A stretch of DNA of 64,000 nucleotides from an uncultured Candidatus Peribacteria bacterium (GCA_964434575.1 CAYSWB010000003.1:57266-121265), one strand, 5' to 3'; positions 4,849 through 63,776 are shown, numbered from the stretch's first letter. The notes: generated by a model not told the origin, from the sequence alone. Made by a program: numbers and translations.

Positions 4849-5244
4849 TCAGTCCGAGAGAACCGCGACGTCCGTCACGACGGAATCCTCGTTGAACCGC
4901 AGGACCAGCCATTCGCTGTCGACGCTGACGGCGCTGCGCTCCGGGCCCAGCCAGTACACCAGATCCCAGTCCGAGAAATACTCCGTTTCGGGCGGCTCGC
5001 CGAGCAACTCGATGATCTGGTTCCTTGTCATACCGCGCAGCGGCGTGCCGGACAGAAGATCATCGATCATTTGCACGCGGCTCGGCGTGGCATCCGTTCG
5101 GTCCGCCGCCATCCAGGCGGCGCGGTCGAACGCCGTGCGTCCGGCGCGGCCGCCGAACGTGCTTTGCACCAAGGGAAACGCCACGAAGACGAGCAGCAAT
5201 GAAAGAACTGCCAGTACGAAGAATGAAACGTTGCGGGAAGACAT
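4849..5244 (-). CDS. membrane-anchored protein with SmpA/OmlA(BamE)-like motif
   Basis: Start chosen at MSSRNVSFFVLAVLSLLLV because TACACT (5251-5256) lies 6 nt upstream. GMTRNQIIELLGEP resembles the BamE-type motif. Confidence 0.55.
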   Translation of the reverse strand: MSSRNVSFFVLAVLSLLLVFVAFPLVQSTFGGRAGRTAFDRAAWMAADRTDATPSRVQMIDDLLSGTPLRGMTRNQIIELLGEPPETEYFSDWDLVYWLGPERSAVSVDSEWLVLRFNEDSVVTDVAVLSD

Positions 5245-5310
5245 GCGTGAAGTGTAGCGAAAACCGCGCATGCTTCCCAAGGCAAGGTGCCGTTTGTGTA
5301 TACTGCGCGC

Positions 5311-5712
5311 ATGCCTTCATCCAACCCCGTCGTCCACTTCGAGATGCCCGCGCGTGACCGCGAACGCATGAAGAAATTCTACGAAGGGGCTTTCGGCTGG
5401 AAGATGAACCAATTAGGCGCGGAAATGGGCAACTACGTCGTGGCGCACACCGGCGAAACGGACGCGAAAACGGGCATGATCAACAAGCCGGGCATGATCA
5501 ACGGCGGCTTCTACGAGCGCACCGACGATACGCAGGCCCCTTCTCTGGTGATCGCGGTGGATGACATCAGGAAGCACATCGAGATCGTCAAGCAAGCCGG
5601 CGGCAAAGTGGAAGGCGAGCCCATGGATATCCCGGGCGTCGGCTGGCACGCGGCGTTCATCGATCCGGAGGGCAACCGCGTCAGCATGCTGCAGCCGTCG
5701 CGGCCGATGTAG
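5311..5712 (+). CDS. VOC (glyoxalase) family protein
   Basis: MPSSNPVVHFEMPARDRERMKKFYEGAFGW ... AAFIDPEGNRVSM. TATACT at 5299-5304 lies 6 nt before the ATG at 5311, so the track's GTG at 5287 is rejected. Confidence 0.85.
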   Translation: MPSSNPVVHFEMPARDRERMKKFYEGAFGWKMNQLGAEMGNYVVAHTGETDAKTGMINKPGMINGGFYERTDDTQAPSLVIAVDDIRKHIEIVKQAGGKVEGEPMDIPGVGWHAAFIDPEGNRVSMLQPSRPM

Positions 5713-7143
5713 CTACATCGCGTGTGCCGCATGAGCGGAGGCGTCGTGCTTGCCGCCTTTTTTGTCGCGGATGAGGAGCAAGCCGATGGCCGTGGCGGCG
5801 ACCACGAAGATCACGCCGGCCAGGAATGCCGCCTTGTAGCCGTCCACCACGGCTTCCGGGCTGGCCGGAACGCCCGCTGCGGCAATGACGGATGCCGCGA
5901 CGCTGGAGAGGATCGCAAGTCCGATGGCACCGCCCATTTGCTGCGAAGTGTTGATGAGCCCGGACGCCAGGCCGGTCTGGTCGTCCTTCACGCCCGAGGT
6001 CGCCGCGACCATGAGCGGCATGAACGTCATCGACATGCCCACGGGCATGAGGATCACGGTGGGCAACACGTCGGTCCAGTAGTTGCCGGCGACGGGCAAC
6101 CGCGTCAGCCACAGCATGCCGGCGGCCACCAACAGCGGACCGGCGATGAGGAACGGGCGGTAGCCGAACCTCGACACTCCCCTGGCGATGCGTTGCGACA
6201 ATATGGCCATGATGATCGGGAACGGCAGGAACGCCATGCCCGTCAGCACCGGCGAGTATTTGAGGACGTTTTGGATGTAGAGTGAGATGAGGAAGAACAT
6301 GCCGAACATGCCCGCCGAGATGGGCGCGGACATCAGGTTGGCGCCGGTCACGTTGCGGACCGCGAAGATGGAGAGCGGCATGAGCGGGTGCTTGGCGCGC
6401 TTCTCGTTCCAGACGAACGCCGCCAGCAACGCGACGGATGCCGCGCCGAACAGCAACGTGTTTTGCGAGAGCCATCCCCACGCCGGCGCTTCTCCGACCG
6501 TGTATACCAGCAACACCAGGCCCGCGGTCACCAGCGCGGCGCCGGGCAGGTCCAAGTCGCGGTGCGGCTGATCTTCCTGTTTTTCATGCGGCAACATGCG
6601 GGCGATGGCGACGGTGATCGCGATGCCGATGGGAACGTTGATGAAGAAATTCCAGCGCCAGTTCAGCAGCTGCGTCAGCACGCCGCCGAGCAGCAGGCCG
6701 ACCGCGGCTCCGCCGTTGGCCACCGTGATCCAGTGTCCAAGCGCGCGGTTGCGCTCCTTGCCTTCGGCGAACGTGATGAGCACCACGGACAGCGCTGCGG
6801 GCGACATCAGCGCGGCCGTCACGCCCTGGATCGCGCGCAGCACGACGAGGATTTCAGGCGACTGGGCGATGCCGATCAGGAATGACACGAGGGTGAAGCC
6901 GCCGATGCCGAGCAGCAGCACGCGGCGGTGACCGAAGATGTCCGATGCGCGTCCGCCGAGCAGCAGGAAGCCGCCGAACGTCAGGGCATAAGCGGTCACG
7001 ACCCACTGCAGCGACGCATCGGTGAACCCCAGCGACTCCTGGATGGCGGGCAGCGCGACGTTGGTAATGCAGACGTCCAGCACCACCATGAACTGCGCGA
7101 CGGCAACCAAACAAAAAATCAACCAGGGGGATTTTGTTCGCAT
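5713..7143 (-). CDS. MFS transporter, DHA2 (EmrB/QacA-like, 14-TMS) type
   Basis: 476 aa. FMVVLDVCITNVALPAIQESLGF, WVVTAYALTFGGFLLLGGRASDIFGHRR and multiple hydrophobic spans. Confidence 0.9.
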   Translation of the reverse strand: MRTKSPWLIFCLVAVAQFMVVLDVCITNVALPAIQESLGFTDASLQWVVTAYALTFGGFLLLGGRASDIFGHRRVLLLGIGGFTLVSFLIGIAQSPEILVVLRAIQGVTAALMSPAALSVVLITFAEGKERNRALGHWITVANGGAAVGLLLGGVLTQLLNWRWNFFINVPIGIAITVAIARMLPHEKQEDQPHRDLDLPGAALVTAGLVLLVYTVGEAPAWGWLSQNTLLFGAASVALLAAFVWNEKRAKHPLMPLSIFAVRNVTGANLMSAPISAGMFGMFFLISLYIQNVLKYSPVLTGMAFLPFPIIMAILSQRIARGVSRFGYRPFLIAGPLLVAAGMLWLTRLPVAGNYWTDVLPTVILMPVGMSMTFMPLMVAATSGVKDDQTGLASGLINTSQQMGGAIGLAILSSVAASVIAAAGVPASPEAVVDGYKAAFLAGVIFVVAATAIGLLLIRDKKGGKHDASAHAAHAM

Positions 7144-8260: not shown

Positions 8261-8743
8261 TTAGCGCAAGACGGCTTCGAACTTGTCGAGCGACTGGTTC
8301 CAGCCGGTCGTGGCGTCGTTGGCCATCTCGGCCGGGTGGCCTTCGTGCTTCAGCGTCAGTTTGGTCTTGCCGGGGCCGGCCTCCTCGAAGGTGACGGTCA
8401 CGCGCATCTTCTCGGGCCACTCGCCGGGCATGCCGAAGTCCTTGGGCGACACCCAGTTGCCGTCCTTATCGGAGAAATAGTCCGTGGCGACGATCTTCTT
8501 CAGCGGAATGACCTCTTCGTATTCACCGGCGCTCCACATGTCCTGATCGAACGGCGAACCGGCGGGGCCGCGCATGCAGTACACGTACTTGCCGCCCTTC
8601 TTCAGCTCGATCTTGCCGACCCTGCCGGTGAAGTCCTTGGGGCCCCACCACTTGGCGACGTGTTCGGGATTCGTCCAAGCGTCCCAAACTTTCTGGACGG
8701 GCGCGTTCAGCACGCGCGTGATGTTGATGTCGATGGTCTCCAT
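8261..8743 (-). CDS. SRPBCC / Aha1-like domain protein
   Basis: 160 aa. RVLNAPVQKVWDAWTNPEHVAKWWGPKDF ... GWNQSLDKFEAVL. Confidence 0.8.
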   Translation of the reverse strand: METIDINITRVLNAPVQKVWDAWTNPEHVAKWWGPKDFTGRVGKIELKKGGKYVYCMRGPAGSPFDQDMWSAGEYEEVIPLKKIVATDYFSDKDGNWVSPKDFGMPGEWPEKMRVTVTFEEAGPGKTKLTLKHEGHPAEMANDATTGWNQSLDKFEAVLR

Positions 8744-8765
8744 GGTGGAAGGGGGAAGAAATGAA

Positions 8766-9209
8766 TCAGCGGGAAGATGCGAGCATGCGCTCGAGCTTGT
8801 CGAAGTTTTGTTCGTTGGCCGGCGCGACGAACGCCGAGACCTTGTCGTATTCGTCCTGGCGGGCGAACGTCATGCGCCAGGTCAGCCGCGTCTCCGCCCC
8901 GCTGGCTTCAAACGTCATTTCCATGCGGAATTCGTGCTGGGGATCGACATAGGTGTACACGATGCTCTCGGGAGCTTTCACTTCATCGAACACCATCGCG
9001 TTTTCGAACGTGGCGCCGTCCGGACCGGCCATGGTCATGTTCCAGCGGCCGCCCGGCTTGAACTCGAATATCTTGAACGCGCTGGTGAACCCGTCGGGGC
9101 CCCACCAGCCCTCCAGTGTCTTGGCGTCGGAGAATGCGCCCCACACGCGCTCGCGCGGATGCTTGAGCAGCCGGGTGGTAACGACGGTGCGGGAAGTCGG
9201 ATCAGTCAT
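8766..9209 (-). CDS. SRPBCC / Aha1-like domain protein
   Basis: 147 aa. RLLKHPRERVWGAFSDAKTLEGWWGPDGF. Its start overlaps the arsR-like stop by 8 nt. Confidence 0.8.
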   Translation of the reverse strand: MTDPTSRTVVTTRLLKHPRERVWGAFSDAKTLEGWWGPDGFTSAFKIFEFKPGGRWNMTMAGPDGATFENAMVFDEVKAPESIVYTYVDPQHEFRMEMTFEASGAETRLTWRMTFARQDEYDKVSAFVAPANEQNFDKLERMLASSR

Positions 9210-9534
9210 TGGGCATGGAGGCTACGTACTGCTCAAGGTTATCGAGACGGTCGCTCCAGAGCCGCTCGTAGTGCTTCAGGTAATCGGCGGCGGACTTGAA
9301 CGCGACCGGCGACAGCTGCACGCGCTGCTCTTTGCCCAATCGCCTCTTCACGACCAGGTGCGCGCGCTCCAGGATCTTCAGGTGCTTGGAAATCCCCGCC
9401 AGCGTCAGCTTATACGGCGCGGCGATCTCGCCGACCGACATCTCTTCCTTGGCCACCCGCTGCAGGATGTCGCGACGGATGGGGTCGGCGAGGCAGGAGA
9501 AGATGCTGTCGAGGGACAAAGAACATTCAACCAT
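9202..9534 (-). CDS. ArsR/SmtB-family HTH transcriptional regulator
   Basis: 110 aa. CLADPIRRDILQRVAKEEMSVGEIAAPYKLTLAGISKHLKILERAHLV is a typical ArsR winged-helix region. Confidence 0.9.
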   Translation of the reverse strand: MVECSLSLDSIFSCLADPIRRDILQRVAKEEMSVGEIAAPYKLTLAGISKHLKILERAHLVVKRRLGKEQRVQLSPVAFKSAADYLKHYERLWSDRLDNLEQYVASMPND

Positions 9535-56437: not shown

Positions 56438-57736
56438 ATGTTCCTCGAGAATTTCAAAACCATCATCGGCATCACCGGCGCCATGCTCCGGCTGGACAAC
56501 GAAGACCAAGCCGTCTTTCGCACGCCGCAAGCCGTTCACAGGTCAGAACTGCGCCTGGTGCGCGATGACGGCACGGTGGAAACCTGCGGCGCATACCGTG
56601 CGCAGTTCAACAACGCGCGCGGTCCGTTCAAGGGCGGCATCCGATTCCATGCGGACGTATCGGAAGAGGAAGTGGTTGCGCTGGCGGCACTCATGGCGAT
56701 CAAGACCGCAGTGGTGGACATTCCGTTCGGCGGCGGCAAGGGCGCCGTGCGCTGTTCTCCGCAGTCACTTTCGCCTGGTGAGCGCCAGCGGCTCTCGCGC
56801 GAATACGTCCGCGCGTTCGCGCCGCATCTGGGACCGCTGAAAGATTGTCCGGCGCCCGACGTGAACACGAATCCCGAAATCATGGGCTGGATGCGCGACG
56901 AGTACGAACGCCTGACGGGAACGTTCTCGCCCGCATGCATCACGGGCAAACCCCTGTCGCTCGGCGGGATCGTTGGTCGCGATACGGCCACAGCCCGCGG
57001 CGGATTCTTCATCCTGGAGTCGTTGCTGGCGGCCGAAAAACGTCAGGCGAAAGACATCCGGGTCGCCATCCAGGGTTTCGGCAACGTCGGCGGCAACATG
57101 GCCGCCCAGCTGCACGAGGCCGGGTACACCATCGTCGGCATCGCGGACGTGCATGGCGGCTGGCACTCGGAGAAAGGACTGCATCCCCGAAAGCTTCATG
57201 AGCTGCGGGCCCGCACCGGCAGCATCACCGGGGTGGACATGGACGCACAGTCCTGGGTGACGCGCGCCGAACGCATCGATAACGCCCAGCTGCTCTCGCT
57301 CCCCTGCGACGTGCTCATTCCGGCCGCCATCGAGAACGTGATCACCGAAACGAATGCGGACGATATCCGCGCACGGTACGTGCTGGAACTGGCCAACGGA
57401 CCCGTCACGGCCGGAGCGGACAGGCTGCTGGAAAACCGCGGCATCGGCGTGATCCCGGACATCCTCGCCAATGCCGGCGGCGTGACGGTAAGCTACTTCG
57501 AATGGCTGCAGGGCATGTCGGGGCATCGCTGGGACGAACAAAGCGTCGACGAAGAACTGCGGCGCATCATGTTGCGCGCCTGGGACGGCGTCGTACTGCG
57601 TTCACGCTCTTCCGACATGTCCTACAGGCACAGTGCGTTCGCCACCGGCATGGAACGCATCCTGGCGGCGATGCACGCGCGCGGCAGGACATCTGCGAAG
57701 CCGCACGCCCGGCTGCAGCCGGCGCTTGCCGCCTGA
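56438..57736 (+). CDS. gdh: Glu/Leu/Phe/Val dehydrogenase family, glutamate dehydrogenase-like
   Basis: 432 aa. NNARGPFKGGIRFH, IPFGGGKGAV and a Rossmann GFGNVGG. Confidence 0.9.
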   Translation: MFLENFKTIIGITGAMLRLDNEDQAVFRTPQAVHRSELRLVRDDGTVETCGAYRAQFNNARGPFKGGIRFHADVSEEEVVALAALMAIKTAVVDIPFGGGKGAVRCSPQSLSPGERQRLSREYVRAFAPHLGPLKDCPAPDVNTNPEIMGWMRDEYERLTGTFSPACITGKPLSLGGIVGRDTATARGGFFILESLLAAEKRQAKDIRVAIQGFGNVGGNMAAQLHEAGYTIVGIADVHGGWHSEKGLHPRKLHELRARTGSITGVDMDAQSWVTRAERIDNAQLLSLPCDVLIPAAIENVITETNADDIRARYVLELANGPVTAGADRLLENRGIGVIPDILANAGGVTVSYFEWLQGMSGHRWDEQSVDEELRRIMLRAWDGVVLRSRSSDMSYRHSAFATGMERILAAMHARGRTSAKPHARLQPALAA

Positions 57737-57738
57737 AG

Positions 57739-58401
57739 TCAGAACGAACAGCCGAAGCGGCCCAGGTTTCTGCTCTGGACGGCGAACAGGATGCCGTGCA
57801 GCCATGTCGAAGGATTCTTTGTCGGCAAGACGTACAACGACAGGTCGAACATCTTCAGCTGAGCTCCGCTGGGCGTGTCCACCACGCCCAAATTGGCGAT
57901 GTACGCTTGGTCGCGGAGGATGCGCCTGCTGTCCCATCCCATGAAATCGAACCACAATCCGGTGTCGTCCATGAGCCTGCGGTTCGCCCGGAGGATGTCC
58001 TTCAGTTGCGGTTCAAGCTCCGGATGTTTCTTGTACTCGTCCAGCGTCAGCACGCGCATGCTCAGGCGTTCCTGGATCATGTAGAAGCGCTTGCCTTTGA
58101 TATCTGCGACCAATTCCGTGGTCACGACCCGGTCGCTGAAGTACTTCAGACACAGCGCGACGTGCTCCGACATCTCGGCAGGCGACTGGGTGAAAACAGG
58201 GCTGATCGCCATCGAGAAAAAATCCGACCGCGTCTTGGCGCGGGGGTATTTGATCACCATGCGCGGAGCACCTCCGGGCATTTCGTACGCGCGGACGACG
58301 TTCTGGGCGCCCATGCCGACGAGCCCTCCGACCGACGACAACCGGACCTCCGGAAACCACCGGATGAAGTACTGCCGCTCACCGAACGTGAGATGTTTCA
58401 C
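57739..58401 (-). CDS. small protein-kinase-like-fold candidate, paralog A
   Basis: 220 aa with a GTG start. TAGGAT (58408-58413) lies 6 nt upstream. VGMGAQNVVRAY...RMVIKY, FDFMGWD and LKMFDLSL align with paralog B. Confidence 0.6.
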   Translation of the reverse strand: MKHLTFGERQYFIRWFPEVRLSSVGGLVGMGAQNVVRAYEMPGGAPRMVIKYPRAKTRSDFFSMAISPVFTQSPAEMSEHVALCLKYFSDRVVTTELVADIKGKRFYMIQERLSMRVLTLDEYKKHPELEPQLKDILRANRRLMDDTGLWFDFMGWDSRRILRDQAYIANLGVVDTPSGAQLKMFDLSLYVLPTKNPSTWLHGILFAVQSRNLGRFGCSF

Positions 58402-58436
58402 GCGGGCATCCTAACGGATCGTGCACGGATTATCGA

Positions 58437-59186
58437 CTATGCCGTGAGGTCGAACTCCGCGCGTTGCACCATGCGATGATTGTTGCGCTGGTTCGAATAG
58501 TATCCGCCGGCGTGCGCGATGCCGCTGAGCGAAAACTCCGGCGTGTGCATGAGCGTGAGATCGAAAATCTTCAGCCCAGGCAACGACACGCCGGTTTCAG
58601 ACTGCTCCCAGACCACGGCTACGTTGCCCATCGCGACCTGGTCGCAAAGCACGCGCCAGATGTCCCAACCCTGGAAGTCGAAAAAGCGCCGCTTGTCCAT
58701 CTGCAGCTTCTTGTCCTGCTCGATCATGTGCTTCAGCTCCTGCAGCAGGTGAGGAAAACGAACGCACAGTTCGGGCGTGAGCATCTCCATCTCCAGCTTC
58801 TGCTGCAACATGCAGTACGACGCCTTGTCGCGCGTGCTGCGGATGATCTTGGGCACGACGACGGCGTCACCGAAATACTCCAGGCACGTGTCGGCATCTT
58901 CCCGCGCCTGGTCGTACGTGGCGGTGAAGAGCGGGCTGACGAACATGGACATGGGATCACGCCGGGCGTCTTTGCGCAGCAATTTCAGCACTCCCCTGCG
59001 CGTGCCTTCCATGGCGTTCGCGGCATAAGCGATGACCTGGTCCGTGACGTAGGCCACCTTTTCGATGCCCGTGCCGAGATGCTTTCCGACCTTGTGCGGA
59101 TCGATGGCGGGATAGTGCTGCGTGATGTGCCGATGTTCGTGCTGGGTAAGCATGGAACGTAAAAATGGTGAAGTACGATTATCCAT
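58437..59186 (-). CDS. small protein-kinase-like-fold candidate, paralog B
   Basis: 249 aa. LGTGIEKVAYV...GVLKLL, CLEYFGD, FDFQGWD and LKIFDLTL. Confidence 0.6.
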   Translation of the reverse strand: MDNRTSPFLRSMLTQHEHRHITQHYPAIDPHKVGKHLGTGIEKVAYVTDQVIAYAANAMEGTRRGVLKLLRKDARRDPMSMFVSPLFTATYDQAREDADTCLEYFGDAVVVPKIIRSTRDKASYCMLQQKLEMEMLTPELCVRFPHLLQELKHMIEQDKKLQMDKRRFFDFQGWDIWRVLCDQVAMGNVAVVWEQSETGVSLPGLKIFDLTLMHTPEFSLSGIAHAGGYYSNQRNNHRMVQRAEFDLTA

Positions 59187-59209
59187 ATTCCGTCCAGCAT
59201 GTCAATGCT

Positions 59210-59947
59210 CTACGGGCGGTTTTTCCTGTTGCCCATCGCCAAATACGATGCCCGTTCATCTGGAGTAAATTTCTCGATGGCATAGCGCAGCATGGTCCTG
59301 GGCATGCGGTCGCCGTTGCGTCGGAGGAAGCGTTCCAAGGCTGCCTTGTCGCGCTTTCCCGCCTCGCGGAGCATCCAACCGCAGGCCTTGTGCATCAGGT
59401 CGTGCTTGTGCGTCAGGAACTTCTCGGACAACCGGAAAATATCCCGCAAGTCGCCACGCCGGATGAACGCCAGCGTGGATACCACCGCGACCCGCTCGCG
59501 CCACAGGTGGCCGGATGCGGCCAGCTTGTCGAGGATGCCACGCGGCTTGTCGGCCAGGTATTCGCCCAGGATGCGGTACGCCGACGCGTCGACGATGTCC
59601 CAGTTGTTGACGCGGTCGAGCTGCGAAACGTAGAAATCGACGATGTCCTTGCGGATAGCTTCGCCGGCTTTGGTAAATTGCGCGTCGAGGATGAGCACCG
59701 CCGCCAGACGGCACTCGTGCAATTCGTCGTCCAGGAGCTTCTTTACTTCAGGCAACGGCAGTCCGCGATGTTCCTTCACGATGGCGCGGACTTGCGGCAC
59801 CGTCACTCCCATGAAGACGTCGCCTTCGGCGTACTCCCCTTTTCCCGCCTTGAAGAACTTGGCAAAGAACGCCGCTTTGGCCGGATCCGAAGACCCGGCC
59901 AAAGCTCGGCGCACGGAAACGGCGGTATCAGGCGGATTCTTTGCCAT
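59210..59947 (-). CDS. DNA alkylation repair protein (AlkD/AlkC-like HEAT-repeat family)
   Basis: FFAKFFKAGKGEYAEGDVFMGV, NNWDIVDASA, LWRERVAVVSTLAFI and KACGWMLREAGKRD. Confidence 0.85.
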   Translation of the reverse strand: MAKNPPDTAVSVRRALAGSSDPAKAAFFAKFFKAGKGEYAEGDVFMGVTVPQVRAIVKEHRGLPLPEVKKLLDDELHECRLAAVLILDAQFTKAGEAIRKDIVDFYVSQLDRVNNWDIVDASAYRILGEYLADKPRGILDKLAASGHLWRERVAVVSTLAFIRRGDLRDIFRLSEKFLTHKHDLMHKACGWMLREAGKRDKAALERFLRRNGDRMPRTMLRYAIEKFTPDERASYLAMGNRKNRP

Positions 59948-61241
59948 ACCAATCGACCTTGCGGGTCACGTACATGACCGTCGCCAGGATGACGAACAGG
60001 ATGATGGCGCCGAACAAGAGCGCGTAGTCTTCGATTTGCAGGAGGAGATAGAGGTAGCCGTACAGCACCGCCAGCAGAACGCCGACGCTGGTGCCGAACT
60101 TCTTATGACGCAGCACCGAGACGCTGTAGCCGCTGACGAGCGCCACCGTGGCGACCGCCGACAGCAAGTATGCCGGCAGGAAGCCGACATGCTCGGACAA
60201 TGAGAGGAGCAGGAGGTAGAAGATGGAAAGCGCCGCTCCGACCAGGATGTACTGGAACGGGTGGACGCGTTCGGTATGCAAGACCTCGACGAGGAACAGT
60301 ACCAGGAAGGTCAGGCCGATGAAGAGGATGGCGTACTTGATGGCTCGGTCAACCAGCGTGTAGAAGTCGGTGGTCTCCAGCAGCTTCACGCCGAAGCTCG
60401 GACCGGGAGTCTGGCCGTGCGTCTGGTACCCGTATTCGTCATACGCGGGAACCGCAGGCGCGGTTCCGCTGCCGGCCCACCACGAAGAAACCGTCCAATC
60501 GGACGTGAAACCCTCCGGAGTGATCTCGTACCGGGCGGGCAGCACTCCTCCGATGAAACTCGGCGTAGTCCACGGCGAAGACATGCTGACGTTCATCGTC
60601 TTTCCGGACGGCATGAATTCAAGCGATTCGGTGCCGTGAAGCTTGAGCACGTAGCTGAACGGCGTTCCCGCCGCCGGAACGGCGCCAAGCGGCGCGCTGA
60701 TGGCGGAAGAGCCGTACTGCGAAGCGGCCGGAGCGAACGTGACCTTGCGACCGCCCATATCCAGCTGCGGCTGTTCGACGAGGCCGCGGAGATCCGTGAC
60801 GCCGGTGTCCAGCGTGACGCGCTCGGGCAGAATGCGGCCCTCGACTTGCGCGGCCGCGATCACCCCGCTCATGCGCACTTCGGCGGTGTAGACCGGCACG
60901 CGGAAGATGCCGCGGTACCGGATTTCGGTGTCCACCTTCACGTCCACCGTGACGGATTCGGGCGCGACGGCGTTGTCGACGGTTTGGTCCACGAGCACGC
61001 CCTTCTCGTCGCGCACTTTCACGACCGACGGGACATGCAGCGTGGGCGCGGCGACCAGTTGTGCCGCTCCCCACTTGGACGAAATTTCATTGATGGCTTC
61101 GTATTGGCGATTCTGCCGCTCGGATACCAGGCCGTACACCAGCAAGCTGGGAACGTAGCACAGCAGTACCAGGAAACCGACCAGGAACATCTTGAAACTC
61201 ACGCTCATGGATCGCTGCATGGCAGGGAGGGGAAATGACAT
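59928..61241 (-). CDS. creD: cell-envelope integrity inner membrane protein CreD
   Basis: SERQNRQYEAINEISSKWGAAQ and a C-terminal cluster of TM helices. Start at MSFPLPAM, supported by TGCTATCCT (hexamer 61251-61256) 9 nt upstream. The longer track ORF would overlap trmB. Confidence 0.8.
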   Translation of the reverse strand: MSFPLPAMQRSMSVSFKMFLVGFLVLLCYVPSLLVYGLVSERQNRQYEAINEISSKWGAAQLVAAPTLHVPSVVKVRDEKGVLVDQTVDNAVAPESVTVDVKVDTEIRYRGIFRVPVYTAEVRMSGVIAAAQVEGRILPERVTLDTGVTDLRGLVEQPQLDMGGRKVTFAPAASQYGSSAISAPLGAVPAAGTPFSYVLKLHGTESLEFMPSGKTMNVSMSSPWTTPSFIGGVLPARYEITPEGFTSDWTVSSWWAGSGTAPAVPAYDEYGYQTHGQTPGPSFGVKLLETTDFYTLVDRAIKYAILFIGLTFLVLFLVEVLHTERVHPFQYILVGAALSIFYLLLLSLSEHVGFLPAYLLSAVATVALVSGYSVSVLRHKKFGTSVGVLLAVLYGYLYLLLQIEDYALLFGAIILFVILATVMYVTRKVDWYGKESA

Positions 61242-61306
61242 GGAGAAACCAGGATAGCAGAAAAACGCCGATGCAAAAACGGTGCTATTTCGGCTTCCCG
61301 CTGCGG

Positions 61307-62056
61307 CTACTTGGCACTTGCATTGGACCACAGTTCATTGAACACCGCCTGTTGGGTGGCAGCCAGCGAGTGGCTGACGATGACCGTGGCGCAAACCTGG
61401 TTGTCGCCGCACGCGATCATGTACAGCTGGTCGTCCGCGATGATGGTATCGGAAGGGAAGGACATGCCCTCCGGAAGCAGGCGGATCTGGTGTCGCGCGC
61501 TGGCATACTTCTTCTTGTAGCGCGTCGCTTCTTCGCAGCGCACCAGGAGTTCGCGCACCTTCACGCCGGAACCCGCGACCATCTTCGCCAGGCTCTCGTA
61601 ATGACTCGGCATGACCTCATGCAGCGCTTCGGGGTTCATGAGGGCGCAGAAATCCCGCTGCATGCGCACCAGCCCGTCATACATCTTGGATACGGCCTTC
61701 TTTCCTTCGATGAAGCGCACGGTGGGCGTGATGCTCAGCGCGTTCTCCAGTTTCATCAGCTCCGGCAGCTTGGCCTCAAGCGCCTCCGCGGCAAGCGCGA
61801 TCTGCCGTTGCTGGCCGTACAACATGTCGGGCATGGAATGCACGGGGATGGCTTTGACGTAGCGGATGCCGGCGCGCTCGAACGCCTGCACGAAGCCGGA
61901 CTGCTCCAGGCGCTCCAGGATGAAGTACATGGACGACCGCGGGACCCCCGCGTGGCGCGCGATGACGCTCACCGGCTGAGCACCGAGTTCGATGAGCTTC
62001 AGCAGCACCGACGATTCCTTGTCGGAAAAGCCGAATGGAGCGAATATGTCGCGCAT
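61307..62056 (-). CDS. TrmB-family transcriptional regulator
   Basis: FGFSDKESSVLLKLIELGAQPVSVIARHAGVPRSSMYFILERLEQSGFV (TrmB wHTH) plus a C-terminal effector-like domain. Confidence 0.85.
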   Translation of the reverse strand: MRDIFAPFGFSDKESSVLLKLIELGAQPVSVIARHAGVPRSSMYFILERLEQSGFVQAFERAGIRYVKAIPVHSMPDMLYGQQRQIALAAEALEAKLPELMKLENALSITPTVRFIEGKKAVSKMYDGLVRMQRDFCALMNPEALHEVMPSHYESLAKMVAGSGVKVRELLVRCEEATRYKKKYASARHQIRLLPEGMSFPSDTIIADDQLYMIACGDNQVCATVIVSHSLAATQQAVFNELWSNASAK

Positions 62057-62148: not shown

Positions 62149-63702
62149 CTATCTGACTTTGTAGATCTGCAACAACGGGGTGCCGTACCGTTCGATCTCG
62201 TAGACGGGATTGAGTTTCTCGAACCTTTTTCGGTACTCCTTGGAATACCGGCTGAAATACATGACGTATGTCGCATCATCCGTGCAGCCGAAGCGGATGC
62301 CGTCCGGCCAGCGGTACCACGTCACCAGGTAGTCGGCGATGGGAACGCATACGATGTCGCCCGCCTGGACGTTTTGCACGATCCAATCGTGGGCCTGGCG
62401 GTAGCTTGCTCCCCAAAACTCGATCTCGAACGTGTCGTGGATGTCCTTGGGGATGGCCAGGCGAATGGATTCATTCACGTACGATCCCTGGAACGGATGC
62501 ACCCGTACGACCTCGGCGCCAAGCCAGCCGAACACCGCGACCACAAGAACGATGGGCGCATATTTCCAGGAGAGCTTGCGGCCCGCGATATCCATCAACC
62601 ATTCCAATCCCATTCCCGCAAGGATGGCCAGTGCCGGCACGCAGAAGAGGAGCTGCCGGATGCCGTCGTAACGGACCAGTCCCGGCTTGAGCGTGAGGAC
62701 GAGCGGGACCCAAAACCATGCCAGCACCACGACGTAAAACGCCCAGCGTTCGGACCGAAGGGCCCTGCGGAAAGCCAGGACGCTGCCGAGAAGGAACGCC
62801 GCGAAAGCCGGCAACGGCGTGGCCAGGAAGAATTGGAACGGCATGTAGTGCCACGGCAGATCGGCTCCCGGGTACTCCGTGCCGAAGTACAGAACCTTGC
62901 CGGGCCAGAACGATTCGAGCAGGAACACGTGCAAGGAATCGACGATGAGCAGCGGACGGAACCATAGCGTGGGCCACGTGGCGTACATGCCGAGCACGGC
63001 GCCGAACGCGCACAGCGCCAAAAGCGCTCCGTCCCTGCGCAACACTGCCGCCCTGTCCCCTCCTCCGCGCACATCGCGGATGACGGCGGCGCCCAAGATG
63101 ACCGCCAGGATGGGCAGCATCGCGATGGCGCTCAGCTTGGCCGCCAGACACACGCCGTACAGCAAGCCCGCAGCCAGCGCCCAGCGCTTGGAACGCGTGA
63201 CGAGGGTCCTGTGGACGGCGGCGAACATGGGCAGCGACGCCACCAGCACGGGGATGTCCTTCGGGTTGTACTGCGCATGGGCGATGAGATGCGGATACGT
63301 GACGGCGAACAGCGTGGAAAGCCATGCCAGGCGCGCGCCCGCGGCGGCCCGGACGAACGCGAACAGGAAACCTGCCGCGATGGAGGTGACGATGATGCCG
63401 AGCAAGTGATTGGCCGGCGTGAACGGGAATCCGAGAACATGCGACGCGAACTGGGCCGTGCCGTAATTGGCAAGGAAGTATCCAGGGCCGTAGTACATGC
63501 CTTTGCCCGGCATCTCCTGAAGGTAGGTTCCGTCGCCGGTCTGCCAAAAGAGGACGAACTGCTTGGCCCAATTCCTGTGCAGCGGCTCATCCCACGTCGC
63601 GCCGTACGCGTCGATGACGCACAGCTGCGCAACCAGCACCGCCAGCGCGATCAGCGCGGGCGCTATCCACGATTTCCACCGGTGACGGCTGGCTGCATGC
63701 AT
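62149..63702 (-). CDS. GT-C fold glycosyltransferase (ArnT/PMT, family 39-like)
   Basis: About 12 TM spans, with a YGATWDEPLH loop after TM1. Start at MHAASRHRW, with TACCAT (63711-63716) 8 nt upstream. Confidence 0.8.
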   Translation of the reverse strand: MHAASRHRWKSWIAPALIALAVLVAQLCVIDAYGATWDEPLHRNWAKQFVLFWQTGDGTYLQEMPGKGMYYGPGYFLANYGTAQFASHVLGFPFTPANHLLGIIVTSIAAGFLFAFVRAAAGARLAWLSTLFAVTYPHLIAHAQYNPKDIPVLVASLPMFAAVHRTLVTRSKRWALAAGLLYGVCLAAKLSAIAMLPILAVILGAAVIRDVRGGGDRAAVLRRDGALLALCAFGAVLGMYATWPTLWFRPLLIVDSLHVFLLESFWPGKVLYFGTEYPGADLPWHYMPFQFFLATPLPAFAAFLLGSVLAFRRALRSERWAFYVVVLAWFWVPLVLTLKPGLVRYDGIRQLLFCVPALAILAGMGLEWLMDIAGRKLSWKYAPIVLVVAVFGWLGAEVVRVHPFQGSYVNESIRLAIPKDIHDTFEIEFWGASYRQAHDWIVQNVQAGDIVCVPIADYLVTWYRWPDGIRFGCTDDATYVMYFSRYSKEYRKRFEKLNPVYEIERYGTPLLQIYKVR

Positions 63703-63776
63703 CGCAACGCATGGTACCCGCCATACGAAAAACGACAACGGGGTCGCCGTTGCCGTTTCGATCCGGAAAGACGGAA

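Follow-up and report, generated by a model that had tools for sequence, protein, structure and literature searches.

A tandem pair of paralogous genes from Candidatus Peribacteria encoding small proteins with a predicted protein-kinase-like fold

Hanks-type Ser/Thr kinases (PF00069), such as PknB, are bilobal proteins of about 260 or more amino acids in which a Gly-loop, the β3 lysine, a hinge, the proline and asparagine of the catalytic loop and the aspartate of the DFG motif follow each other along the chain. Smaller single-domain, stand-alone proteins of the same fold (about 210–265 amino acids) are represented by WaaY, WaaP and Kdo-kinase as well as by YrbL (PF10707), and RIO and Bud32 are of comparable size, with a truncated C-lobe devoid of an activation loop. 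The latter two contain a canonical HxD-x4-N loop and are nearly universal in archaea and eukaryotes. In addition, the Kinase-PolyVal family (PF18762) is the kinase domain of polyvalent proteins from phages and conjugative elements. Here, we report on two adjacent genes, paralog A and paralog B, on the minus strand of a 64,000-nucleotide stretch of DNA (the window) from an uncultured Candidatus Peribacteria bacterium, i.e., from the candidate phyla radiation (CPR), whose very small genomes are rich in genes without annotation. The encoded proteins (220 and 238 amino acids, respectively) belong to an undescribed branch of the well-known kinase superfamily that is enriched in one CPR class and features a re-wired catalytic loop.

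Paralogs A and B share the bilobal fold and the collinear order of the above-mentioned elements with Hanks-type kinases. Unlike these, however, they are shorter, are not detected by the Pkinase hidden Markov model (HMM), lack the activation segment with its APE motif as well as helices αG to αI, show an only loosely conserved αC glutamate and carry a glutamine in place of the hinge glutamate. Furthermore, the position of the HRD aspartate is not conserved, and the aspartate of an LDFxG motif is located 18 residues ahead of the asparagine. WaaY and its relatives resemble the A/B proteins in size and in their stand-alone, single-domain organization, and the WaaY sequence GDPHRGN...IIDLS aligns with PxxxN...IxD of the A/B family, but the loop of WaaY is of the canonical D-x4-N type and the LDFxGW segment of the A/B family is gapped out in the alignment. 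In contrast to WaaY and WaaP, the pair resides in a CPR bacterium without lipopolysaccharide (LPS) genes nearby, and hhalign returns probabilities (Prob) of 0.4–3%. RIO and Bud32 are similar in size and in the truncated C-lobe without an activation loop; unlike them, the A/B family is patchily distributed within a single CPR class and does not match Pfam RIO1. Finally, whereas Kinase-PolyVal domains are parts of giant polyvalent proteins, the members of the A/B family are stand-alone chromosomal proteins.

Paralogy, predicted fold and conserved residues

The original prediction, made from the sequence of the window, had described two adjacent open reading frames (ORFs) of 220 and 249 codons as small paralogs with kinase-like motifs, and both are indeed present at the coordinates and sizes given there. 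Paralog A occupies positions 57739..58401 in the ORF listing (minus strand, 220 amino acids, stop codon included) and starts with GTG. This start is conserved at the same codon in relatives (GTG-AAG/CAG-CAT, 'KHLT'). In one related locus (L001), the gene call missed the conserved GTG and the paralog A ortholog was therefore shortened to 175 amino acids in the public annotation (8880-9407); the full-length ORF (8730-9404) starts with GTG-AAG-CAT (KHLT). The longest ORF for paralog B (58437..59186, minus strand, 249 amino acids) is over-extended at its start. Since all B-type homologs begin with MLT..., matching M12 of this ORF (ATG at 59153), and since the upstream ATG at 59186 falls inside a conserved promoter spacer, paralog B almost certainly starts at M12, which gives a coding sequence for 238 amino acids at 58437..59153 (minus strand), the TAG stop codon (58439-58437) included.

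BLASTP aligns the two proteins with 32% identity over 227 columns (E = 6e-32). This is well beyond chance, and A and B are thus true paralogs, as had been claimed. Most of the sequence blocks originally listed as shared can be found in both proteins (CL[EK]YF[GS]D, FDF[MQ]GWD, LK[IM]FDL[ST]L, the Gly-rich turns and V-x-K); the first block, for which an invariant initial phenylalanine had been given, has to be corrected to [FA][VI]SP[LV]FT because paralog A reads AISPVFT. Similarly, the proposed distance of 15–25 residues between Gly-rich turn and lysine holds for paralog A (20 residues) but not for paralog B (28 residues).

AlphaFold2 yielded confident models for both paralog A (25-sequence alignment; predicted local distance difference test (pLDDT) 94.6, predicted template modelling score (pTM) 0.89) and paralog B (15-sequence alignment; pLDDT 89.9, pTM 0.85). 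The order of the secondary structure elements is identical in the two models. An N-terminal helix is followed by three β-strands with the Gly-loop and the lysine, short helices, a long αC-like helix and β4-β5. The αE-like helix that comes next is long and leads via a short strand and a short helix into the β7-β8 hairpin and β9, and both models end with a long C-terminal αF-like helix, i.e., without an activation segment and without αG-αI. Mapped onto the kinase core, the arrangement is that of a bilobal protein-kinase-like (PKL) fold, in which the N-lobe is rich in β-strands and bears one αC-like helix and the C-lobe, which includes β6-β9, is helical. When the models were compared with the PDB using Foldseek, every listed match for either protein was a kinase-fold protein (prob ~1.0). 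For paralog A, 80 matches at E ≤ 1e-3 were obtained, including DRP-1/DAPK, DCLK1, CASK, phosphorylase kinase, PknB and CaMKII, and the 13 matches for paralog B at the same threshold include JAK2, PknB, TYK2, a chain of the pre-40S ribosome (6fai_l), PsiK, APH(2''), Lpg2603 and CK1. In a library of viral structures, nearly all named matches were likewise protein-kinase-fold proteins, mostly protein kinases. The PKL fold is therefore confidently predicted for paralogs A and B, in agreement with the kinase-like nature originally proposed.

Residue conservation was assessed with a family profile, i.e., an alignment of 88 diverse members whose columns are numbered according to paralog B. As a reference, genomes of the window's class provided 18 canonical Hanks-type kinase domains. 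Using hhalign, the two aligned over 143 collinear columns (Prob 80.7%, E = 1.3e-5). In the N-lobe, IGxGaqHxVy is paired with lGxGgxGxVy, VIKIP with vAlK, an acidic αC column with the αC glutamate and YcIvQ with VmE of the hinge; in the C-lobe, PxlsNIvV is paired with KPxNilv and LxIiDxGL with vxLxDFGL. A HMMER search of PDB sequences with the profile aligned sNivv...lkIiDtGl with SNILL...IKLADFGL of CDK12, the Asn/Asp segment also with EGFR, and the Gly-loop and lysine with SteC. Accordingly, G29 and K57, both present in 100% of the members, align with the kinase Gly-loop and the β3 (VAIK) lysine, while N177 (100%, 88/88) and D198 (99%, 87/88) align with the catalytic-loop asparagine and the DFG-type aspartate, both in CDK12 and EGFR and in the Hanks-type domains. 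High conservation was also evident for V34 (93%), V55 (94%), F94 (91%), Q117 (98%), N147 (95%), D159 (98%) and G162 (99%). Both proteins encoded in the window retain the Lys, Asp, Asn and Asp residues in question, namely K57 (58985-58983), D159 (58679-58677), N177 (58625-58623) and D198 (58562-58560) in paralog B and K51 (58251-58249), D152 (57948-57946), N170 (57894-57892) and D186 (57846-57844) in paralog A (codon positions on the minus strand). The aspartates of the FDF and FDL motifs, highlighted in the original prediction, correspond to D159 and D198, which are 98-99% conserved in the 88 relatives and stand beside invariant K57 and N177.

Searches for a named family were consistently negative. 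Pfam-A, NCBIfam, PHROGs and PADLOC gave noise only for paralogs A and B, and phmmer found no matching chain among PDB sequences. Pkinase (PF00069) did not match either protein at E ≤ 10, the gathering threshold thus being unmet, and a genome-wide search with the same HMM also missed the locus and recovered two ordinary Hanks-type kinase genes elsewhere in the genome. Neither YrbL-PhoP_reg (PF10707) nor any Pfam family for Kdo-kinase, WaaP or WaaY matched A or B, Kinase-PolyVal (PF18762) gave no match at E ≤ 10, and no LPS context surrounds the locus. The hhalign probabilities for E. coli YrbL (0.3–0.4%), WaaY (3.3%) and WaaP (0.4%) come from comparisons with single sequences that are too insensitive (Prob ≤3%), hhalign having been significant solely against the multi-sequence Hanks-type profile. 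When the 88 members were scanned singly, the sub-threshold Pfam matches were mostly to PKL families (Kinase-PolyVal three times, YrbL, Ins_P5_2-kin, Pkinase and ABC1). Kinase-PolyVal was the commonest family among the distant relatives (3/88, best E = 1.4e-4), and the YrbL match of one member was weak (E = 0.006). As profile searches assign neither a named nor a non-kinase family to A or B, the original statement that the proteins cannot be placed in a named family still stands, and a literature search did not retrieve a description of the family either.

The family itself is of considerable size. A word-indexed search of 5.8 billion proteins returned eight close homologs per paralog, all unannotated, the sole named one stemming from 'Candidatus Peribacteria'. 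An HMM built from A and B and searched against 1.84 billion cluster representatives detected 149 clusters (50% identity) at E ≤ 1e-3, 48 of them at ≤ 1e-10 and 12 at ≤ 1e-30. Most of the proteins comprise 210–240 amino acids. Ten longer relatives span 323–629 amino acids; their extensions are of low complexity, without transmembrane segments and without any Pfam domain. For paralogs A and B, neither a transmembrane segment nor a signal peptide was predicted.

Predicted activity and proposed mechanism

ATP-dependent phosphotransfer is the most likely function of the A/B family, given the confident kinase fold, the Gly-loop, the invariant Lys-Asn-Asp triad and the purifying conservation across about 150 clusters; we hold this view with moderate confidence. 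Judging from sequence and models, paralogs A and B are probably soluble, cytoplasmic and catalytically competent minimal PKL phosphotransferases, constituting an undescribed family mainly found in the CPR class that contains Peribacteria. ATP would be bound between the five-stranded N-lobe and the truncated C-lobe, with the Gly-loop (GxG; family consensus GxGAQHxV) covering its phosphates, the invariant β3 lysine (K57 in B, K51 in A) anchoring the α- and β-phosphates, and the invariant asparagine (N177/N170) together with the DFG-equivalent aspartate (D198/D186) holding Mg2+. The near-invariant glutamine (Q117/Q110) would be placed at the hinge position, and the aspartate of LDFxG (D159/D152) could act as catalytic base or substrate ligand within an expanded D-x17-N catalytic loop. 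Because the C-lobe is truncated (no activation segment, no αG-αI) and because the gene is found on its own in diverse housekeeping surroundings, we would expect action on a common small molecule or glycan, or else on a single dedicated protein, rather than broad protein phosphorylation. Paralog A would preserve the ancestral sequence pattern, whereas paralog B probably has an altered specificity or a regulatory role, since it diverged about twice as fast.

Several observations weigh against this assignment. The TM-scores of the fold matches are modest (0.40–0.48 against solved kinases, 0.40–0.51 overall), which is why we regard the A/B family as a remote branch of the kinase fold. The αC glutamate column (position 86 of paralog B) contains Asp or Glu in 52%, Asn in 20% and Gln in 8% of the members, with Asp in paralog B and His in paralog A, and such loose conservation is unusual for active kinases. 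Columns five and six residues ahead of the catalytic-loop asparagine, where the aspartate of HRD or HxD-x4-N would be expected, are unconserved (mostly Lys, Arg, Ala or a gap), and hhalign against the Hanks-type domains also puts the HRD aspartate on an unconserved column of the family. In alignments with both WaaY and Hanks-type kinases, the motif G-x-[SW]-L-D-F-x-G appears as an insertion of 11–12 residues that is not aligned to HRD. Finally, clustering of the flanking ORFs from about 40 loci did not reveal any recurrent neighbor beyond the synteny of close relatives and thus provides no pointer to a substrate.

The role of the near-invariant D159, 18 residues before N177, deserves particular attention in this respect. 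In both AlphaFold2 models, D159/D152 comes directly behind the short strand that succeeds the αE-like helix, which is the place taken by the HRD aspartate after β6 in canonical kinases. Either D159 may be the catalytic aspartate with a helix-containing insert of about 13 residues before the asparagine, or the HRD aspartate may have been lost and a new aspartate recruited. Both readings lead to a non-canonical D-x17-N loop. We also consider, at somewhat less than even chances, a scenario in which the catalytic aspartate moved from the HRD position to LDFxG about 13 residues upstream while the triad was kept, resulting in a re-wired, active minimal kinase with a CPR-specific substrate.

Distribution, duplication and genomic surroundings

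The genome from which the window originates (1.54 Mb, 96.8% complete) contains exactly two copies of the family, paralogs A and B, while most family-bearing genomes contain a single one. In an even sample of the phylum, members were detected in 4 of 201 genomes; within the class of the window, they were present in 41 of 301 genomes (14%) and in 31 of 189 genera. The distribution is patchy, and many genera even of the window's own taxonomic family are devoid of the genes. A scan of species-representative genomes returned four loci, all from metagenome-assembled genomes of Candidatus Peribacteria. One distant member is labelled Candidatus Paceibacterota, the sole named one in the cluster look-ups, and another distant, long-form member adjoins a gene for an RND efflux pump and may therefore lie outside the CPR. 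A phage or mobile-element origin was rejected, as no relatives were found in IMG/VR viral contigs or GenBank phages; PHROGs did not contain any either. Six members (loci L034, L036, L041-L043 and L046 in genomes G356, G315, G409, G379, G249 and G396) contain 2–10 in-frame TGA codons, which suggests that TGA encodes an amino acid in their lineages (code 25-like) and that the family spans standard-code as well as recoded lineages.

In a maximum-likelihood tree, A-type and B-type proteins formed sister clades, each with 100/100 support (joint node 89/55), the stem of the B-type clade (1.3 substitutions per site) being longer than that of the A-type clade (0.68). Orthologs share 56–80% of their amino acids. 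Paralog A conforms to the family consensus at almost every conserved site, whereas paralog B departs from it at about seven conserved positions (V34A, P59L, T101P, N147D, G155R and others). K57, Q117, D159, G162, N177 and D198 are retained in all eight B-type orthologs. These findings fit a lineage-specific tandem duplication within Peribacteria, after which the two copies diverged asymmetrically, B evolving about twice as fast. A tandem pair of a longer subtype (about 290–310 amino acids) in a distant genome (locus L044, 1375-2250 and 2354-3292) represents an independent duplication.

In the window, the pair terminates a string of genes on the minus strand that encode a PMT_2/GT-C protein (62149-63738), a TrmB regulator (61307-62056), CreD (59928-61331) and a DNA_alkylation/AlkD-like protein (59210-59947); here, Pfam agrees with the original gene assignments. 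The order PMT_2-CreD-AlkD-B-A is syntenic in close relatives. On the other side, the glutamate dehydrogenase gene (gdh, plus strand) ends at 57736 and converges on paralog A, which ends at 57739. The gap of 2 nucleotides leaves no room for a terminator between them, and a terminator-like hairpin (57762-57750) is located inside the coding end of paralog A.

A near-consensus sigma-70-type promoter-like site, TTGACA-16 nt-GATAAT (59178..59205, minus strand; 11/12 consensus matches), is situated directly upstream of paralog B, right after the stop codon of the AlkD-like gene, and is the sole such site in 57500-60100. Its spacer includes the upstream ATG of the long paralog B ORF (59186). Four related loci from Peribacteria (L001, L002, L012 and L014) have kept both the -35 and the -10 hexamer (AATAAT in L012), although the spacer sequence diverges, and this pattern is, as far as sequence comparison goes, a phylogenetic footprint of a promoter upstream of paralog B. 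As the conserved promoter sits directly after the AlkD-like stop codon, B and A are predicted to form a transcription unit of their own, both being transcribed from this promoter, with read-through from upstream as a possibility. The 35-nucleotide spacer between B and A (58402..58436, minus strand) contains a -10-like GATAAT (58434-58429), 28 nucleotides upstream of the GTG start of paralog A, and an AGGA ribosome-binding site (58412-58409) 7 nucleotides before it. CGATAAT is conserved in this spacer in four of five relatives, and a motif of the AGGA/AGCA type precedes their GTG. Our promoter scan of 57500-60100 did not detect a -35 element or call a promoter in the spacer; paralog A may nevertheless be served by a secondary internal promoter there. 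A leaderless start of paralog A, as originally proposed, did not hold up, because an mRNA starting from the spacer GATAAT would carry a leader of about 20 nucleotides with a ribosome-binding site.

The suggested envelope or stress context is likewise not supported, given that B-A has its own conserved promoter and members elsewhere are embedded in unrelated housekeeping contexts. Distant members are flanked by genes for YidD/HIT/HAD, DUF1232, an ABC transporter with Lgt, or a Tyr/dual-specificity phosphatase with NAD kinase; others have MurB, QueG, XerC-like integrases, peptidases, glycosyltransferase GT2, ATP synthase subunit a, a class A penicillin-binding protein or a carbamoyltransferase as neighbors, and tRNA synthetase and ribosomal genes also occur. 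Annotation of 30 neighbors pointed to unrelated functions. AlkD-like genes also flank a distant member in locus L018 (24% identity) and, in flipped order, one in genome G339, and the link was therefore examined genome-wide. Among 18 family-bearing genomes that have an AlkD-like gene, it is adjacent in two (G000 and G339), both from the window's taxonomic family. An HhH-GPD glycosylase gene was found near a family gene in 2 of 43 genomes (adjacent in G258, about 1 kb away in G104). With these counts, AlkD or HhH-GPD as a general partner was rejected; either remains a weak lead at best. Three further families of the class (G230, G409 and G457) have an AlkD-like gene on the contig that carries the kinase-like gene, at a distance of 19–30 kb, which is more often than chance suggests and may reflect loose regional synteny.

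Some individual neighborhoods are worth recording. In locus L021, a family member and a gene for a dual-specificity/Tyr phosphatase are convergent and overlap at the 3' end of the family member (4895-5587, plus strand; 5556-6389, minus strand), with an NAD kinase gene on the opposite side, an adjacency that recurs in locus L048; this could be kinase/phosphatase pairing or plain synteny. In locus L053 (3402-5999 and 6001-6867), a distant member of 288 amino acids starts 2 nucleotides after the stop codon of a gene for a class A penicillin-binding protein (Transgly plus Transpeptidase). Both genes lie on one strand, and their spacing points to translational coupling at this locus. Genome G214 from the same class (1.9 Mb, one contig) gave 24 Pkinase HMM matches, many in clustered ORFs of 850–1080 amino acids (e.g., C1:749-769 kb and 1110-1146 kb). 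For a genome this small, the expansion of Hanks-type kinases is striking.

Competing explanations and significance

Four other explanations have to be weighed against phosphotransfer. Paralogs A and B might be nucleotide-dependent switches or ATPases in the manner of RIO and Bud32, with ATP hydrolysis driving a conformational or assembly step in a partner and no stable phosphorylated product. They resemble this class of minimal kinases in size and in having a truncated C-lobe that lacks an activation segment, the pre-40S ribosome chain 6fai_l, which we take to be a RIO-type kinase, is among the top fold matches, the genes stand alone in housekeeping neighborhoods (tRNA synthetases, QueG, MurB, ribosomal genes), and the missing canonical HRD aspartate would fit weak kinase activity. 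On the other hand, neither RIO1 nor Bud32 is matched in Pfam, presence in just 14% of the class genomes argues against a core role in ribosome assembly or tRNA modification, and the near-invariant additional aspartate D159 suggests real catalysis, so that we regard this explanation as unlikely. The non-canonical catalytic loop is also reminiscent of PKL enzymes with changed chemistry, and the fold might be used for AMPylation/NMPylation (SelO- or NiRAN-like) or for another nucleotidyl or glutamyl transfer. Segments of nidovirus replicase polyproteins do appear among the viral fold matches (ranks 6, 29 and 41; possibly the NiRAN domain), but they score no better than ordinary kinases (TM 0.45–0.47), no match to SelO or another Pfam family was obtained, and the Lys, Asn and Asp residues of the triad are arranged as in ordinary phosphotransferases. 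Use of the fold for other chemistry is therefore very unlikely.

It is decidedly unlikely, too, that one or both proteins are catalytically dead pseudokinase scaffolds, with B in particular serving as a regulatory heterodimer partner of A. The deviations of B from the consensus, its stem branch of twice the length and the tandem, presumably co-transcribed arrangement, which is typical of partner proteins, would be in line with such a role. They have to be reconciled, however, with the fact that B keeps K57, Q117, D159, G162, N177 and D198, invariant in all eight B-type orthologs, and with the single copy in most genomes, where the ancestral protein evidently works alone. Least probable of the four is a function together with the AlkD-like glycosylase or base-excision repair, e.g., in phosphorylating a repair factor or damaged nucleoside, which would in part overlap with the phosphotransferase function that we favor. 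The adjacency of AlkD-like genes in the clade of the window, in L018 and, flipped, in G339, and the proximity of HhH-GPD genes in G258 and G104 prompt this idea; the small number of such genomes, the restriction of AlkD adjacency to the window's taxonomic family in the genome-wide comparison, the conserved promoter that separates the AlkD-like gene from B and about 25 other loci with unrelated neighbors speak against it.

The practical impact of the A/B family will be modest until a substrate is identified. With a fold and a likely chemistry assigned to its roughly 150 clusters, two "hypothetical proteins" per genome disappear from the dark matter of the CPR. The conserved promoter after the AlkD-like stop codon furthermore suggests that sigma-70-type promoters are directly readable in this CPR lineage. 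The tandem pair, with one conservative and one fast-evolving copy, amounts to a small natural experiment in kinase neofunctionalization. For kinase evolution in general, the family would add another minimal kinase core of about 220 amino acids, in which the nucleotide and metal ligands are invariant and the catalytic loop appears to be rebuilt around a displaced aspartate; such cases, e.g., WNK-type residue migration, SelO and POMK, have repeatedly revealed new chemistry or regulation.

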